DNA of 64,000 nucleotides, taken from NCBI GenBank assembly GCA_902786975.1, contig CADAES010000017.1, positions 7,998 to 71,997 on the forward strand. The letters run 5' to 3'. Under the pieces are notes generated by a model. That model saw nothing but the letters and a program-made list of their open reading frames with translations. It had not been told where the DNA came from and searched no databases. The position numbers were made by a program, and so were the translations under genes. Shown here in pieces: positions 45,507 to 53,405 of the stretch. This stretch comes from an uncultured Ruminococcus sp. Lineage in GTDB: Bacteria; Bacillota; Clostridia; Oscillospirales; Ruminococcaceae. Within the stretch, counting starts at the first letter, position 1, and every line of letters starts with the position of its first letter.

Positions 45507-46832
45507 TCAGCCGGCGCTGGGGTCACACACAGCACCCATAAACACGGGCAGACCTGTTTGTGTATCCATTATCGCATATGCGAATGGTCTGTCAAGAACG
45601 ACTTTTGTTTGATCGGCAGGGGGCGCTGCGGAATCGACCATTTCGACTGCTGTTGCGGCTTCTGCCTTTGTTCCGCCCTCGGTGACCTCGATATGTGTCT
45701 TGTGGATCACCTTGCTGATATGGAGCTTAAAATCGGAGGACATATCCGAAAAGTCTGCACTTTCGTCCAGGAATGCGTCCTTGATGCCCATATCGGTAAG
45801 TGTCTTGTTAAGAGTTGCGCTGTAATCGGACTTGAACCTTGGCATATACACACTTATCTCTTCATTGGTAAGTCTGTTCTCGTAGAGCTTTGTGAACTTT
45901 TCGGCGGTGAGAGACCCGATATGATCCGAGAGGCTTGTTCCCTCGTTGGGGAGCAGTGCCATAAATGCATATCTTCCGCCCGCATAATCCTTGATAAAGC
46001 CTGTGGTGTCGGCGTCCCTGATATACTTTTTCGCTGTGCCCGACATCATATCGCACTTTACCACACTGCCGTCAGCTTTTGTAAAGGAAGCGCCCTTTTG
46101 TGTGTCACTTTCCTCGAATTCCTTTGCCCACTTTGCGTCGAATGCGAGACAGTTCACCAGCAAAGCCTTGTCGTCTTCCGAAAGCTCCTTGATTATCTCG
46201 GGTATCATCTTGTCGGTCTTATCGTTCACCCAAGAGTTTATCTGCTCGACGGTCTTATCGTTGAACGGTGCCCTGAACAGCTCTGCGTTGTAGGCCTCCT
46301 TGCAGGTGTTAGTAAACTTTGCCGTAAGGTCCTTGCCCTGTACGTCCTTTACCCATACGGAATTTGCCGACCTGAGCTGTCTGTAACTGTAGCTTTGGAT
46401 ACCGGAAAGGATAAGGTTAAAGTTTTTATTGAATGTGCCGATATCGGTATCTGCATACAGGACCTTTTTCATCTGCTCGGCTGTTTCGCCCTTTGCACCG
46501 TTTGCGGTCATTCCAAGAGCGATGGCACAGGACTCGGGCGAGATAAGGAAATTGCTGTTGTTTTCAAGCTCCTGCTTTGCTGTTCTTTTGAAAAGCTCGA
46601 CAGAAAAGCCGTTCACGCTGCTGATAAAGCCCTTGTCAAACTCGCTGCTGTCGGAGGTATCTGCCTTTTTGAATTCGATGTTGGCTGTCGGCTGAGCTAC
46701 ATCGTCGGCGAGGACGAACGAAGCGCTCTGAGCTGACTTGTTTTTGCTGCCGTTGTCATTCTGCTGGGAGCAGGCTGCCATTCCCATTACGATAGTGATA
46801 GCTATCACCGTACTTACGATCCTTTTCAACAT
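45507..46832 (-). CDS. serpin family lipoprotein (paralog 3)
   Basis: Lipobox VMGMAAC, hinge GTKAEAAT, DRPFAYAIMD. Start moved to MLKRIV. Confidence 0.9.
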   Translation of the reverse strand: MLKRIVSTVIAITIVMGMAACSQQNDNGSKNKSAQSASFVLADDVAQPTANIEFKKADTSDSSEFDKGFISSVNGFSVELFKRTAKQELENNSNFLISPESCAIALGMTANGAKGETAEQMKKVLYADTDIGTFNKNFNLILSGIQSYSYRQLRSANSVWVKDVQGKDLTAKFTNTCKEAYNAELFRAPFNDKTVEQINSWVNDKTDKMIPEIIKELSEDDKALLVNCLAFDAKWAKEFEESDTQKGASFTKADGSVVKCDMMSGTAKKYIRDADTTGFIKDYAGGRYAFMALLPNEGTSLSDHIGSLTAEKFTKLYENRLTNEEISVYMPRFKSDYSATLNKTLTDMGIKDAFLDESADFSDMSSDFKLHISKVIHKTHIEVTEGGTKAEAATAVEMVDSAAPPADQTKVVLDRPFAYAIMDTQTGLPVFMGAVCDPSAG

Positions 46833-46968
46833 TTTGATCTTCCCCTTTTTGTAAAAATGAATTTGCACGCTGTCTGTTTTATTTTGCGTACACTTGATAT
46901 ACGAACAAGGGGTGTGATTTTTATTGCGTCATTTTGCACAAACATTACAAAAAGGAACTGTGTATTCT

Positions 46969-50006: not shown

Positions 50007-50039
50007 AACACATACCGTGTGGTACGCTAAATAATAACC

Positions 50040-50247
50040 GCCTTGCCGTCGCACAGTTGATAAAACCCGCTCTCGCAGGTGGGTACCAGCCCAATGACTT
50101 CTCGCTCCCAACGTCCGGATACACACGGCACAAAGTCGGCGTGCACCGGGAGGTCTGCAATCCGTTTCTCGGAGACCCGGTTCCCTTTTAATTGTGTGTT
50201 GGATTTATAATGACCGTGCTCAACGCACAAGGCAGAAATCTTTTTCT
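50040..50247 (-). ncRNA. structured RNA with a cobalamin-riboswitch-like core; class unverified
   Basis: In order on the minus strand: AAUUAAAAGGGAA, a CCGGG...CCCGG hairpin, CGCCGACU, GGGAGCG, AAGUCA...ACCUGC. A long 5'/3' closing rod. No RBS-led ORF. Confidence 0.45.
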
Positions 50248-50365: not shown

Positions 50366-50743
50366 TCAGCTGAAATGCTTACCGTCACAGTCCGCATCGC
50401 CGCAGCCGCATTCCTCATCGTCGTCGTATTCAAACATCTCCTCGATGCGCTTCATGAACATATCGCCGATCCTTTCGTACTCGTCATCGTCGTCGATAGA
50501 AGCAAGTATCTCGTCGTTGTTCTCGTCAAACTCGGATTTGAGTATAACGACCTCGCCGCAGTCATCAAGCATCTTGTCAAGCTCCTGCTCGTCATAGTAC
50601 GGTGTGAGCGCATAATACTTCTCACCCTCGAATTCCATAACATCAAGAAGCTCAAAGCTCTGCTTATCGCCGTTCTCGTCCTCAAGCTCGTAAAGATCGG
50701 GTGTGTAATCCTCATTCATTTCGATCTCATTGTCCTTGCTCAC
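50366..50743 (-). CDS. DUF1292 family protein
   Basis: 125 aa, very acidic, with the typical core ELEDENGDKQSFELLDVMEFEGEKYYAL. Confidence 0.85.
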   Translation of the reverse strand: MSKDNEIEMNEDYTPDLYELEDENGDKQSFELLDVMEFEGEKYYALTPYYDEQELDKMLDDCGEVVILKSEFDENNDEILASIDDDDEYERIGDMFMKRIEEMFEYDDDEECGCGDADCDGKHFS

Positions 50744-50967
50744 CGTAGTTTCCCCCTTATCTCAAAAAATGTGATATGTTTTAACATATCACCCGGGTCA
50801 TCCCCTCAATGACTTCAATATAAACCAAAACGGCTAAACAAAAGGCTTTTCACGCCAAATTGCCCGCCGCAACAATATTATTATACTACATTATAAAAGG
50901 AATGTCAAGGCTTCTATTGTAAAAGTAATATTAAATATAAAATATGCAAAAAAGTTGAGAAAAACTA

Positions 50968-50996
50968 TTGACAAGTAACAAAAAGTGTGATATATT
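50968..50996 (+). promoter_or_regulatory. near-consensus sigma-A promoter of the long non-coding unit
   Basis: TTGACA, 17-nt spacer, TGaTATATT, with an AT-rich UP-like region upstream. Confidence 0.7.
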
Positions 50997-51460
50997 ATAT
51001 TCAAGAAAACAAGAACCGAACAGTTCACTTGAACGTGAAGCTGAACGGCAGCGAAAATACACAGCATCAGCGCAGATGCCTGCACCTTTCGCAGCACGGT
51101 TCCGAGGATGTCAGATGCCGCATATGCGGTGGTGCCAGCAATCGGACGGCTCGAGTTTTTGAGATCACGGGTCAGAACGGAAATAAGTGAACGCACTGCA
51201 ATACATGCACGATCCCCAACAAGCAGCGAAGTACTCCGGGAGATCTAAACTGACACGAAAGGAGCGAGTCCCATGGGCGTACTGGATATCAAGAGCGGTA
51301 GCCATAGGCTCGGCAGTTTCGACAATTAAGAGGATCAGGACACGGACATACGGGCCGTCAGATCTCAACAGTATGATTTACATAAACGAACTGCCTTGTC
51401 TTATGGAAAACGGAATTACTTATGAATCTTTACAGCAAGGCTACCATATATAATTGAATA

Positions 51461-52312
51461 TCAAGTCCGGTTTGGACACCGGCACACTATATTACATTTT
51501 AGGATTGGAGTTGTTTCCGATGCACGCTTCGGATCATTTTGACGAGAAAGAAATATCATGATAGAGTGAGTCCAATGTAATATCGTGTTTTTTCATCAAA
51601 CTTTAAATATATCTTATAAATATTTTTGGAGTGATGCGCTATGAAAATAGCAAACACCAGGTTCCTGAACATTTGAATCTAAGGAGTGAGTCCACCAAGA
51701 TATTTACGAGTTTGAAGCTCTTTTCAAAATAAGTTTCTGAACATATTTCTATGACGGGAGTGGTGCATATGATCTGCACATGCACAAAACGTTTGAATAT
51801 TTGACAGACAGGAGTGAGTCCGCCGGAAAGTTCAGCTTTTACCTGAAATTCAGGTAGTATGATTTGATTTGAAATAAACCGAAAGGAAATTGATCCAATG
51901 GCTCTATAAACTGCGTTTTTACGCACAGTACGAATTTTTACTTACGGTCAAAAAACTTTTACCATTGTGGCCAGACTTCAAATTTTGAGAGGTAATAAAT
52001 CCGATGGGTTAAATATTTTTAATATCAGATATTCAACATCATGGCGGAAATTGATCCGACAAAGTTGATGTCTGTGAGCACAAAATTTAATGAAGGGCGT
52101 GAGTCCAAAGTACTATTTAACTTGAATTCGACTTTATAGTTATATATCTTTTGAAGGGACTGAGTCCAAAATTCTGTTTTAAATGATGGATGGCAAGCAG
52201 GGGCTTGTCTATATGGACCAATTTAATTCTACGAAAGGTGTAAAGTCCAATGGCTTAATTCAATTTCAAACCAACTATCTTATTTGAATTGGAGTGAGTT
52301 GCGATGTGCTAA
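51461..52312 (+). repeat. array of about 13 degenerate units (period 50-105 nt) with core aAGGAGTGAGTCCaATG
   Basis: Cores at 51505, 51563, 51626, 51681, 51756, 51809, 51881, 51987, 52044, 52092, 52153, 52233 and 52289. An upstream A/T-rich TTTGAAYATTTGA-like box is often present. Confidence 0.7.
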
Positions 52313-52349
52313 CTAAATAGTACATATGCAAAAAAATATTGATATATAC

Positions 52350-52383
52350 GAGAGCAGCAGTGTTTGCTGCTCTCTTTATTTTT
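52350..52383 (+). terminator. strong intrinsic terminator
   Basis: Perfect 10-bp stem GAGAGCAGCA/TGCTGCTCTC followed by TTTATTTTT. Confidence 0.85.
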
Positions 52384-52397
52384 GTGTCTGAACCTAT

Positions 52398-52427
52398 AAC
52401 AAAAAGAGCTGCCGTTTTGCGGGCAGC
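52398..52427 (-). terminator. intrinsic terminator of the aldo/keto reductase gene
   Basis: GCTGCC/GGCAGC stem followed by UCUUUUUGUU on the minus strand. Confidence 0.6.
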
Positions 52428-52436
52428 CCTTTGTGT

Positions 52437-53405
52437 TCAGATCCTGTTTTCGAGAAATGCTACGGTCTTTGCGTCGTATCTGAGGTCCTGTGCGGACATA
52501 TCCTCCTCTATCTGCCACGTTCTCGATGCGGCAAACACAGACGTTACAAAAAACGGCTGGCTCGAAAGATATCCGATAGGTATCATTGCCGGTGAATCGC
52601 CAGTCTGGCGGCTCAGCTCCTTCACCCTCGCAAGTCTTGCAAGGTTAGCTGTGCTGGCATATTGTCCCTCGGGGAGATACTGTGCGGTGTCGCCCTTTGC
52701 AAGTCTTGCAAAGAAGCCCTTGGCCTGCGGCGAGAACGCCATAAGCGGGAAATTGTTGCTGCTGTACCACCGGAATTCCTTAGTGTCCATACATACCAGC
52801 GTCGGGTCGCCGAGTATGCTTGAGCTTGCGTGTGCAAGGCTGTAATATATCTGGCTTATCCTTATCGGCTCAAGTCCGTTCTTGTTCGCAAAATCATTGG
52901 CTGCCTGTATCCTTTCGCAGCTCCAGTTTGAAACGCCGATAAAATGCGCCTTTCCGCTTTGGTAGATATCGTTGAGCACAGGCATTATCTCCTCGACCGG
53001 GACACGGACATCGTCTCTGTGCAGGAAGAATATATCGACGTGGTCGGTGCCGAGACATTCAAGGCTGTCGCTGATATCCTTTTCAAGGTCTTCCCTGCTC
53101 AGACGATTCTCGTCCATATGACCCATTGCGGGATGTCCGCCCTTGGTCGCAAGGACGATCTTGTCACGGTTGTTCCTTGCTTTCATCCAGCGTCCGATAA
53201 CGCCTTCGCTGGAATTGTGCCCGTCCTCCAGCCAGTCGCAGTACACCCTCGCAGTGTCGATGCACCAGCCGCCGTTGTTGATATATGTATCCAGTAGTTC
53301 AAAATATACTTCGTCGTTGTCGTGCCTTTTGAAATCTCCCGTACCGAAAGTCAGTGCGGGAAGCTTTATTTCATATTTGTCGTTTTTAAGTGTATAGCTT
53401 ATCAT
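52437..53405 (-). CDS. aldo/keto reductase
   Basis: 322 aa AKR fold (DTARVY...LATKGG...GVSNW). Confidence 0.9.
   Translation of the reverse strand: MISYTLKNDKYEIKLPALTFGTGDFKRHDNDEVYFELLDTYINNGGWCIDTARVYCDWLEDGHNSSEGVIGRWMKARNNRDKIVLATKGGHPAMGHMDENRLSREDLEKDISDSLECLGTDHVDIFFLHRDDVRVPVEEIMPVLNDIYQSGKAHFIGVSNWSCERIQAANDFANKNGLEPIRISQIYYSLAHASSSILGDPTLVCMDTKEFRWYSSNNFPLMAFSPQAKGFFARLAKGDTAQYLPEGQYASTANLARLARVKELSRQTGDSPAMIPIGYLSSQPFFVTSVFAASRTWQIEEDMSAQDLRYDAKTVAFLENRI

Follow-up and report, generated by a model that had tools for sequence, protein, structure and literature searches.

An uncultured Ruminococcus sp. carries on contig CADAES010000017.1 (assembly GCA_902786975.1) a predicted, unannotated transcript, here called the array RNA, in which degenerate complements of the 3' tail of 16S ribosomal RNA (rRNA) recur every 51-106 nucleotides (nt), followed by open reading frames (ORFs) of 18 codons at most or by no start codon at all. 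The DNA analysed is a 64,000-nt stretch of this contig, which is referred to as the window and whose own numbering is used throughout. A promoter and a terminator delimit the transcript (~1.38 kb, ~51003-52384, plus strand) within a 1.69-kb gap (50744-52436) that holds no plausible gene and no long ORF. The array RNA is read here as a multi-site ribosome-docking, abortive-translation RNA that would park or titrate ribosomes and would be stabilised by them, a reading to which a probability of roughly 45% is given. The observations that carry it are the transcription-unit signals, the conservation of the locus, the fit of the sites to the 16S tail, stop codons specific to one frame, the spacing of the sites and the variation of their number between lineages.

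A preliminary description of positions 51461-52312 had reported 13 units in which a Shine-Dalgarno (SD)-like core recurs, five of them with ORFs of 1-3 codons (ATG at 51575, 51898, 52004, 52250 and 52304), one with an ORF of 13 codons (51520) and two with ORFs of 11 codons (51641 and 51769), and all of these are present. The units do fill that interval, but the array extends further: its best-conserved member, unit 0, lies upstream, and the promoter and terminator bound a longer RNA that includes a 5' domain. Also missed was the fact that about 38% of the sites in the family lack a start codon. In the window the array comprises 12-14 internal sites in an AT-rich region, with degenerate cores of 11-20 nt, and all four site types that are distinguished below are represented (Table 1).

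Predicted docking sites, mini-ORFs and spacing

The sites share the consensus yGAAAGGnGUGAGUCC, and a position matrix built from 92 class I units reads yGAAAGGrrnUrAkUCC-r-AUG-G. When position -5 is bulged, this matrix equals the complement of the 16S tail over the stretch that runs from the penultimate C as far as the GGA adjoining helix 45, and an extended SD of this kind can pair at both extremities of the single-stranded tail GGAUCACCUCCUUUCU, with its 5' GGA and its 3' CCUUUC. Pairing of the consensus with the 16-nt tail involves 14 pairs and yields -18.8 kcal/mol, compared with -6.8 +/- 2.4 kcal/mol for shuffled sequences, none of which was as good in 2000 trials. The window units examined for pairing reach -12 to -18.3 kcal/mol, and all of them use both ends of the tail. 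Sites at or below -14 kcal/mol are 15-fold denser in the array than in the remaining window (5.8 against 0.39 per kb, both strands), and of the 12 window matches to GGAGTGAGTCC with up to two mismatches, eight fall inside 1.04 kb, seven of those on the plus strand. The earlier claim that the core matches almost the entire tail is borne out as far as the length of the pairing goes, but a bulged nucleotide or a short internal loop has to be allowed.

The distance from GG to UCC is 10-12 nt and the UCC-N-AUG arrangement is fixed, as expected of SD-to-start spacing. The third base of the GGN element varies (A, G, U or C), while UCC and AUGG are invariant. Ordinary genes of the window have GGAGG-type SDs, consistent with a canonical anti-SD, and none of 45 such genes has TCC at positions -4 to -2 before its start. 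An unusual anti-SD in this clade was set aside, since the window genes use GGAGG. A small GGA...UCC hairpin in each unit was rejected because the third base of GGN varies and UCC never covaries with it; tRNA-like 3' ends (GAGUCC-ACCA or -GCCA) were rejected because GAC, GAA or AAC takes their place in other species. A role at the DNA level, through GANTC/GATC methylation or iterons, was likewise discarded, given that sequence variants destroy the sites and that the units are one-stranded within a promoter-terminator unit.

Site classes were counted in 18 non-redundant species with 232 sites, or 8-22 sites per RNA. In class I (66 sites, 28%) an AUG stands 1 nt past the pairing region and opens an ORF of 1-4 codons, with the in-frame stop after 0-2 sense codons; unit 2 of the window (ATG at 51575) also belongs here. 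Class II sites (53, 23%) precede ORFs of 8-15 codons, among which the 13-codon ORF of unit 1 is counted. Class III (89, 38%) has no AUG, GUG or UUG at the start position; its window members, at 51683, 51811, 52046, 52096 and 52157, have pairing energies of -12.6 to -15.8 kcal/mol. Reading through class III sites from an upstream AUG or UUG (MKGVSPK..) was rejected, as these are not conserved as starts. A further 20 sites have ORFs of 16-30 codons, typically one per RNA near the 5' end, which are called ORF0.

The ORFs that follow an AUG behind a strong SD fall into two length groups: 102 of 249 have 1-3 codons and 97 have 9-13 codons with a peak at 11, whereas only three have 4-7 codons. ORF lengths after weak-SD AUGs of the same RNAs decay smoothly. 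Among 139 non-identical CCnAUG units, an in-frame stop occurs within two codons in 66%, compared with 11% and 15% in the other two frames, and for 89 units from 15 divergent species the figures are 69% against 11% and 15% (odds ratio 14.7), the early stop being found in most units of almost every one of these species. The products of the mini-ORFs are diverse (MA, M, MG, MY, MV, ME, MAR, MER and others, more than 25 mini-peptides in all), and they end in TAA (76), TGA (21) or TAG (11). Orthologous units can shift the stop and yet stay tiny, as in ATG-GCT-CTA-TAA versus ATG-GCT-TGA. The preliminary description held that docking and initiation, not a peptide, are what is conserved. For the mini-ORFs this stands, since the comparative data show selection on the 16S-tail complement, the AUG and the immediate in-frame stop and not on di- or tripeptides, but it cannot be upheld as stated for the 11-codon ORFs, which keep frame, length and C-terminus through synonymous codons, and for ORF0, in which most codon changes are synonymous.

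Successive sites are most often 50-59 nt apart (68 of 214 distances), and gaps of less than 45 nt make up 7%, compared with 27% under random placement. The footprint of a 30S subunit on messenger RNA (mRNA) reportedly covers about 54 nt, from -35 to +19, by the chemical footprinting of Huttenhofer and Noller in 1994; with a footprint of this size, adjacent sites could be occupied together.

In the longer ORFs the frames are kept. The two 11-codon ORFs of the window, MKIANTRFLNI and MICTCTKRLNI, retain 11 codons and a stop in 12 of 12 close relatives, with synonymous changes. Among 74 distinct class II sequences, the last codon encodes Ile or Phe in 55 and is preceded mostly by Asn, Lys or Glu and, before that, Leu. 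This [L][N/K/E][I/F]-stop ending is preserved through synonymous codons (TTG/CTG/CTT/TTA, AAT/AAC, ATT/ATC) and with all three stops. In 47 of the 74 the stop lies 11-12 nt before the GAGTCC of the next site. The next site begins a fixed 5-6 nt on. There are one to eight class II modules per RNA. In the conserved part of ORF0, four codon changes are synonymous and one is non-synonymous. ORF0 and two or three ORFs of 11-13 codons in the window combine strong SDs with conservation of the frame and are probably translated, while most sites cannot encode a peptide.

Conservation, distribution and limits of the transcript

Rumen metagenome contigs that encode exactly the same DUF1292 protein, the left neighbour of the array, have a gap that is 99-100% identical to that of the window (96% on contig L007). 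Relatives in which this protein is 66-83% identical, including Ruminococcus sp. Marseille-P6503, keep a gene-free gap of 1.6-2.3 kb upstream of its gene even where the other neighbour differs, and no gene calls lie in the gap of any relative examined. These gaps are colinear, with the promoter, the terminator and the unit cores at matching places. Identity between the array and its counterparts in the nearer relatives (L011 to L025) is 69-82%, compared with 71-82% for the flanking coding sequences, and invariant columns account for 76% of the cores versus 40% of the spacers. The spacers vary from unit to unit, are conserved across species and frequently contain hairpins; some of these hairpins have a different sequence in other species with their pairing kept.

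A scan with the DUF1292 protein as query, limited to one genome per species, yielded 80 loci, of which 76 could be evaluated. An expanded array that diverges from DUF1292 is present in at least 34 of the 76, including species of Ruminococcus and Huintestinicola. Ruminococcus sp. FC2018 and Huintestinicola butyrica, both carriers, belong to the Oscillospiraceae, the family to which the preliminary description had pointed for relatives. Independently, a search of metagenomes for the unit-0 pattern gave 108 loci from human gut, rumen, rodent and fermenter samples; where enough flanking sequence was available, 75 of 83 have a DUF1292 gene diverging within 1.2 kb, and among the exceptions are a chance match to an ordinary gene and two arrays with other surroundings. 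Two metagenome contigs, L239 and L226, carry full arrays without a recognisable adjoining DUF1292 gene: on L239 a different acidic ORF with Cys-x-x-Cys pairs diverges from the array, and on L226 there is no gene at that place. A scan of viral contigs with GTGAGTCCN{95,125}GTGAGTCC gave about as many matches as estimated by chance for 16 specified bases, and this pattern is too loose to be informative.

Between its conserved promoter and terminator the RNA measures 925-1506 nt in 23 species, and up to ~1760 nt when four more species with hand-set ends are counted. The number of sites ranges from 2 to 22 between lineages, and such copy-number variation between lineages is seen in titrating RNAs. 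At the lower end are minimal versions of 230-480 nt with the same promoter type, an ORF0 and one to three sites, upstream of DUF1292 in L072, L085 (Fumia) and L088. The Fumia RNA (~480 nt) consists of ORF0 and one or two mini-ORF units, and that of L088 (~230 nt) of ORF0, one start-less site, one mini-ORF and the terminator; in L088 the UGA stop of ORF0 lies inside a GGUGAGUCC core. In an Oscillospiraceae metagenome-assembled genome (L062:899-2269, minus strand), a two-site module, AAGGAGTTCAGTCCAATGAACGGCTAA then TTGAAAGGCGTGAGTCCAACAGG, is present in six tandem copies of ~101 nt. Judged from sequence, this tandem is a recent amplification and illustrates how an array grows.

The array promoter scores 11/12 and has the TG extension, and transcription is predicted to start at a conserved CAAG (~51003). 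The promoter stretch CTATTGAC..GTGTGnTATAnT is kept in 32 species loci and is invariant in alignment A1. The 5' domain is only 52-68% identical to that of relatives, and some of its hairpins have compensatory pairs (for example 51021-51029/51034-51043 and 51169-51173/51242-51246). The terminator is strong; its stem shows two compensatory pairs among relatives, and it closes the array RNA in 23 species.

Unit 0 with ORF0 is the most conserved segment (88-93% identity in nearer relatives). The 3' end of ORF0 (51312-51319, GGCAGTTT) pairs with 51388-51395 (AACTGCC), ~75 nt downstream, and relatives switch an A-U pair to G-C on both sides, a change that also replaces Ser by Gly in the ORF; ORF0 therefore overlaps a conserved helix that its translation would open. 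Further downstream, the ATG of unit 1 is invariant among relatives, and the ATG-TAA of unit 2 is kept in L011, L013, L015, L018, L019, L020 and L239. TTGAAYATTTGA forms the end of the ORFs of units 3 and 5, and the next AGGAG follows 5 nt further on. The AUG of unit 5 lies in the loop of a GUGCA/UGCAC hairpin (helix 51763-51768/51780-51785), the stem of which becomes GUGCG/CGCAC in distant homologues. Units 4 and 6 contain exact core matches (51683-51693 and 51811-51821), the former invariant among relatives. Among the mini-ORFs, unit 7 reads ATG-GCT-TGA or ATG-GCA-TAA in relatives and unit 8 reads ATG-GCT-TAG; in unit 12 the ATG GCT TAA and the CGAAAGG are invariant in nine relatives while the remaining core varies slightly. 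The orthologue of unit 13 is GGAGTGAATCCGATGTACTAA in L019 and GGTGAATCCAATGTACTAA in Fumia. GGAAATTGATCC occurs identically at 51885 and 52046.

Table 1. Features of the array locus, in window coordinates
Feature	Position	Strand	Description
DUF1292 gene	50366-50743	-	Left neighbour of the array gap
Promoter	50968-50996	+	-35 TTGACA, 17-nt spacer, extended -10 TGaTATATT; near-consensus
5' domain	51003-51255	+	Relatively G+C-rich, variable in sequence, local hairpins
Unit 0 and ORF0	51256-51329	+	CGAAAGGAGCGAGTCCC at 51256-51272; ATG 51273, 18 codons MGVLDIKSGSHRLGSFDN, stop 51327-51329
Unit 1	51507-51561	+	GGAGTTGTTTCC + G + ATG 51520, 13-codon ORF MHASDHFDEKEIS; tail duplex -12.3 kcal/mol
Unit 2	51560-51580	+	GATAGAGTGAGTCCA + ATG-TAA (51575-51580), start directly followed by stop
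Unit 3, class II	51628-51676	+	GGAGTGATGCGCT + 11-codon MKIANTRFLNI (51641-51676)
Unit 4, class III	51679-51696	+	AAGGAGTGAGTCC-ACC, no start; 5 nt past the unit 3 ORF stop; -14.3 kcal/mol
Unit 5, class II	51756-51804	+	GGGAGTGGTGCAT + 11-codon MICTCTKRLNI (51769-51804)
Unit 6, class III	51806-51824	+	ACAGGAGTGAGTCC-GCC, no start; 5 nt past the unit 5 ORF stop; -15.8 kcal/mol
Unit 7, class I	51880-51909	+	CGAAAGGAAATTGATCCA + ATG GCT CTA TAA (ATG 51898); -18.3 kcal/mol, both tail ends used
Unit 8, class I	51986-52012	+	TGAGAGGTAATAAATCCG + ATG GGT TAA (ATG 52004)
Unit 9, class III	52043-52060	+	GGCGGAAATTGATCCGAC, no start; -12.6 kcal/mol
Unit 10, class III	52091-52108	+	TGAAGGGCGTGAGTCCAA; repeat D1; -15.5 kcal/mol; invariant among relatives
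Unit 11, class III	52152-52169	+	TGAAGGGACTGAGTCCAA; repeat D1; -14.3 kcal/mol
Unit 12, class I	52232-52258	+	CGAAAGGTGTAAAGTCCA + ATG GCT TAA (ATG 52250)
Unit 13, class I variant	52289-52312	+	TTGGAGTGAGTTGCG + ATG TGC TAA (ATG 52304), terminal mini-ORF
Intrinsic terminator	52350-52384	+	11-bp stem (52350-52374), then T-run
Aldo/keto reductase gene	52437-53405	-	Right neighbour of the gap, convergent to the array RNA

Proposed function and competing explanations

In the proposed mechanism a 30S subunit would dock at each site, and class III sites would serve for docking only. At class I sites a ribosome would initiate and terminate with its anti-SD still able to reach the SD core; over three codons or fewer the GGAG core would remain within roughly 14 nt of the P site, so that the ribosome would never leave and would either re-initiate or idle. 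Such a hold over at most three codons would account for the abrupt upper limit on the length of the mini-ORFs. With twelve or more ribosomes lined up on it, one RNA might in this way titrate or park 30S subunits and 70S ribosomes, and the docked ribosomes could shield the RNA from RNase J-type decay.

The array RNA would then be a translational counterpart of the sponge and decoy RNAs. Known decoys of the expression machinery are 6S RNA for RNA polymerase and CsrB for regulatory proteins, and to our knowledge no bacterial RNA has been described whose job is to bind many ribosomes through their anti-SD tail. A more specific version is possible, though the odds are against it: the array RNA would be dedicated to titrating or parking ribosomes as the translational equivalent of 6S RNA, by whole-tail pairing at 8-22 sites one 30S footprint apart and with mini-ORFs of up to three codons that keep their SD, and would set the pool of free ribosomes, for example in the feast-famine cycles of gut and rumen. 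If true, this would add a layer of global translational control in abundant gut and rumen fibre degraders, also represented in human-gut metagenomes, and would account for the selection on ORFs of 1-3 codons. It would also offer a natural test bed for the reach of SD/anti-SD pairing and its persistence after initiation, and high-affinity ribosome docks and insulated mini-cistrons as parts for synthetic biology. Even without a sponge role, an RNA of 1-1.8 kb that is conserved like its neighbouring genes in dozens of species is missing from Rfam and from annotation. Three cultured strains carry it, Ruminococcus sp. FC2018 (L025), Ruminococcus sp. Marseille-P6503 (L019) and Huintestinicola butyrica, which makes direct testing possible.

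Several points weigh against ribosome docking as the function. The sites were called by duplex energy with a Firmicute 16S tail standing in for that of the host. The pairing is not a straight complement, as a bulge or internal loop lies opposite CAC(C), and it requires that G1529 and G1530, at the base of helix 45, are free to pair. The predicted unpaired probability is 0.37 at the sites versus 0.42 elsewhere in the RNA, and folding thus does not show the sites to be constitutively open. The minimal relatives, with only two or three sites, cannot be high-capacity sponges, and the species that enter the cross-species statistics are not phylogenetically independent. Furthermore, ORF0 and the class II ORFs suggest that the RNA may act partly through their products or through nascent-chain effects.

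An unlikely rival explanation is that the array RNA is a polycistronic micropeptide mRNA. ORF0 (16-29 amino acids) and the class II peptides (9-14 amino acids) would be functional, for example as a toxin and antidote or in signalling, and the other sites would act as ribosome-mediated stabilisers or as devices for reinitiation or insulation, in the service of peptide expression. The high conservation of ORF0 with its synonymous third-position changes fits such an mRNA, as do the frame, length and [L][N/K/E][I/F]-stop end of class II, and the yrzI/spyTA operon of B. subtilis, where RNase J1 is blocked by an 11-of-12 SD and four small ORFs are present, provides a precedent (PMC12067863). Against it, the 3' half of the array (units 7-13, ~450 nt) has only ORFs of 1-3 codons or none and is nevertheless conserved like coding DNA. 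The ORF0 peptides of distant lineages are unrelated (MGVLDIK.., MKSEDCC.., MFTETEPK..), the class II ORFs of close relatives do not vary preferentially at third positions (3/4/6 and 5/5/5 variable sites at the three codon positions), and no genes for processing or export are conserved nearby.

It is less probable still that the array RNA is a sponge for a non-ribosomal factor that recognises SDs, such as a CsrA-type repressor, an anti-SD-like small RNA or another RNA, with the AUG-stop serving only to abort unwanted translation. Titrators of the CsrB/RsmZ type have just such a layout of a short motif in many copies, and the array shares with it irregular, unrelated spacers, local hairpins and a lineage-variable copy number. 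That 38% of the sites have no start codon would fit as well, and selection against accidental translation would likewise produce early in-frame stops. The motif, however, spans ~17 nt plus AUGG, far longer than a GGA site, and follows the 16S tail from end to end. A CsrA sponge is characterised by many A(N)GGA motifs, mostly in hairpin loops, whereas here GGA, GGG, GGU and AGA replace one another while UCC and AUGG do not change, and folding predicts the sites to be no more open than other parts of the RNA (0.37 versus 0.42). The 2-nt variation in the GG-to-UCC distance resembles SD-AUG spacing more than a rigid binding site, the conserved ends of the class II ORFs would be left unexplained, and GGACUCACUCC, which would be complementary to the motif, does not occur elsewhere in the window.

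A battery of minigenes that depletes transfer RNA (tRNA) or translation factors, one of the options raised in the preliminary description, is very unlikely. It would act through peptidyl-tRNA release, as lambda bar does, or by consuming fMet-tRNA, release factors or recycling factors, and would in this way restrain growth in certain conditions. A minigene is indeed built of an SD, an AUG, one or two sense codons and a stop, and this architecture is under selection here. The fit is poor because the second codons are diverse: the sense codons specify Ala, Gly, Tyr, Val, Glu, Asn, Asp, Arg and others, and the commonest, Ala, is the second residue reportedly enriched in highly expressed proteins (PMC1397820). 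Moreover, one conserved unit has no sense codon (ATG-TAA), 38% of the sites cannot initiate, and the strong conserved promoter suggests a high constitutive expression that would be costly for a toxic element.

Also very unlikely is a large structured RNA, either ribozyme-like or a self-assembling "ornate" RNA, in which GGNG..UCC would form structural modules or kissing contacts and the likeness to a ribosome-binding site would be incidental. The transcript is long, conserved and non-coding, some hairpins have compensatory changes, and GGAGUGAGUCC is quasi-palindromic (pairing I1). Covariation is nonetheless confined to local hairpins of the 5' domain, the spacers and the terminator and is absent from the cores, frame-specific stops and preserved ORF frames would not be expected, and Rfam gives no match. 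The long-range switch pairings I1 (51551-51573/51683-51705) and I10 (TTGAATATTTGA/TCAGATATTCAA) were rejected, as they are broken without compensation in L017 and L025. Neutral decay of duplicated gene starts or of a mobile repeat, for which the degenerate copies and the AT-rich region might speak and which the preliminary description tied to an absence of similar arrays from relatives, can be dismissed in view of colinear arrays in more than 30 species, conservation equal to that of neighbouring genes, a conserved promoter and terminator, and cores that are more conserved than the spacers.

Relation to known systems and neighbouring genes

Start-stop elements, in which an AUG is directly followed by a stop, act in E. 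coli leaders and in plant NIP5;1 as single cis-regulators of a downstream gene. Unit 2 is similar in having AUG-UAA behind a strong SD but differs in that no gene follows in the array. Single natural minigenes can also act as regulators (PMC3262186, PMC8708949). Those of lambda barI/barII, the LEE1 leader and axe-txe resemble the array in their SD, AUG, one or two sense codons and stop, without a useful peptide, and this architecture recurs in five ORFs of the window and in the 66 class I sites of the 18 species. The known minigenes are single, lie within leaders or operons, and act in cis or are toxic by peptidyl-tRNA drop-off, whereas the array RNA joins three to eight minigenes with start-less SDs and 11-codon ORFs on a terminator-bounded RNA and has full-tail SDs and diverse sense codons. 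The shared last sense codon that would go with drop-off of one particular peptidyl-tRNA, as in lambda bar, is not found among its more than 25 mini-peptides, and one unit has no sense codon.

Leader peptides of translation attenuation (ermC, cat and tnaC type) come from short ORFs whose translation governs whether the SD of a downstream gene is exposed. Class II modules are like them in the short ORF, the C-terminus conserved up to the stop and the SD at a fixed short distance, and differ in that the downstream SD usually has neither a start codon nor a gene behind it and that the modules are repeated, one to eight per RNA.

In elements of the STAB-SD type (the cryIIIA STAB-SD, hbs, yrzI/spyTA), ribosomes bind to an SD that is a near-maximal complement of the 16S 3' end, and decay in the 5'-to-3' direction is blocked (PMC12067863, which cites Agaisse and Lereclus 1996). 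The yrzI/spyTA mRNA is, moreover, a polycistronic transcript of small ORFs (PMC12067863). Class III sites have the sequence character of a STAB-SD, a strong 16S complement without a start codon, and a stabilising role is predicted for them. In the STAB-SD cases, however, a single 5'-proximal element protects a message that codes for a protein or peptide, while the array RNA has 8-22 internal sites, most of them with nothing to express. Extended, start-proximal SD pairing of the AGGNGU type has been demonstrated by cryo-electron microscopy and toeprinting in the Firmicute S. aureus, where the motif pairs 5' of CCUCC and takes the spacer into the helix (PMC13009471). The array has AGGAGU, AGGCGU, GGGCGU and AGGUGU; the S. 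aureus SDs serve ordinary genes with a few extra pairs, whereas the array complement extends as far as the GGA at the helix 45 base and stops 1 nt short of the AUG.

Like CsrB/CsrC, RsmX/Y/Z and 6S RNA, the array RNA would be an abundant non-coding RNA that binds the expression machinery, be it through many degenerate sites, as in CsrB, with which it shares a lineage-variable site number, or by mimicry of a ligand, as in 6S RNA. Its presumed ligand is the 16S tail and not CsrA or RNA polymerase, and there is no homology in sequence or structure. A clustered regularly interspaced short palindromic repeat (CRISPR) array, which would have near-identical repeats of 24-48 nt, regularly spaced and separated by unique spacers, is not a match either, given degenerate cores of 11-20 nt, irregular spacing and spacers conserved between species. 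Tandem Repeats Finder reports no array at the locus, as the copies are too degenerate.

The view that the element has no known counterpart is upheld in Rfam 15 and in the literature searched, neither of which contains this combination. At gathering threshold the window matches only 6S RNA, at another locus; with E up to 10, positions 50800-52500 give only chance-level matches of 10-24 bits. Seven distant homologues match only tRNA and 6S families, a search of 35 homologous or neighbouring loci returned nothing for the array RNA, and OLE, ROOL, GOLLD, raiA, HEARO, Clostridiales-1, leader and small-RNA families have no match near their gathering scores. Since the array RNA matches no Rfam family and lacks defining features of bar-type minigenes, STAB-SDs, CsrA sponges, CRISPR arrays and attenuation leaders, a dedicated, terminator-bounded RNA of 8-22 full-tail complements with start-stop or 1-3-codon ORFs and start-less docks, conserved across a bacterial family, would constitute a new kind of element.

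The gene for 6S RNA (RF00013, 59.6 bits; 50031-50241, minus strand) lies ~125 nt downstream of DUF1292 in the same orientation. Of 35 further species loci scanned, 23 have this order, with or without an expanded array, and the array RNA is divergent from a likely DUF1292-6S operon. The DUF1292 promoter is a perfect consensus (TTGACA-17-TATAAT, 50908-50880, minus strand), ~60 bp from the array promoter. Between the divergent promoters (50880-50960), an AT-rich GTAAAAGTAATATTAAATATAAAAT is almost invariant across species and could represent UP elements used in common or the target of a regulator. The 5' leader of DUF1292 has, immediately ahead of the ribosome-binding site, a perfect 9-bp hairpin with a T-run (50771-50792, minus strand) that looks like a terminator; its stem is not kept in the nearest relatives and may be strain-specific. 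A scan of the window for tRNA and transfer-messenger RNA genes found none. Further away, at 45507-46868 (minus strand) and in the relatives' loci, two or three tandem serpin genes (PF00079) are followed by Methyltransf_21 and bPH_2 and adjoin spo0A, and this cluster is kept in rumen relatives.

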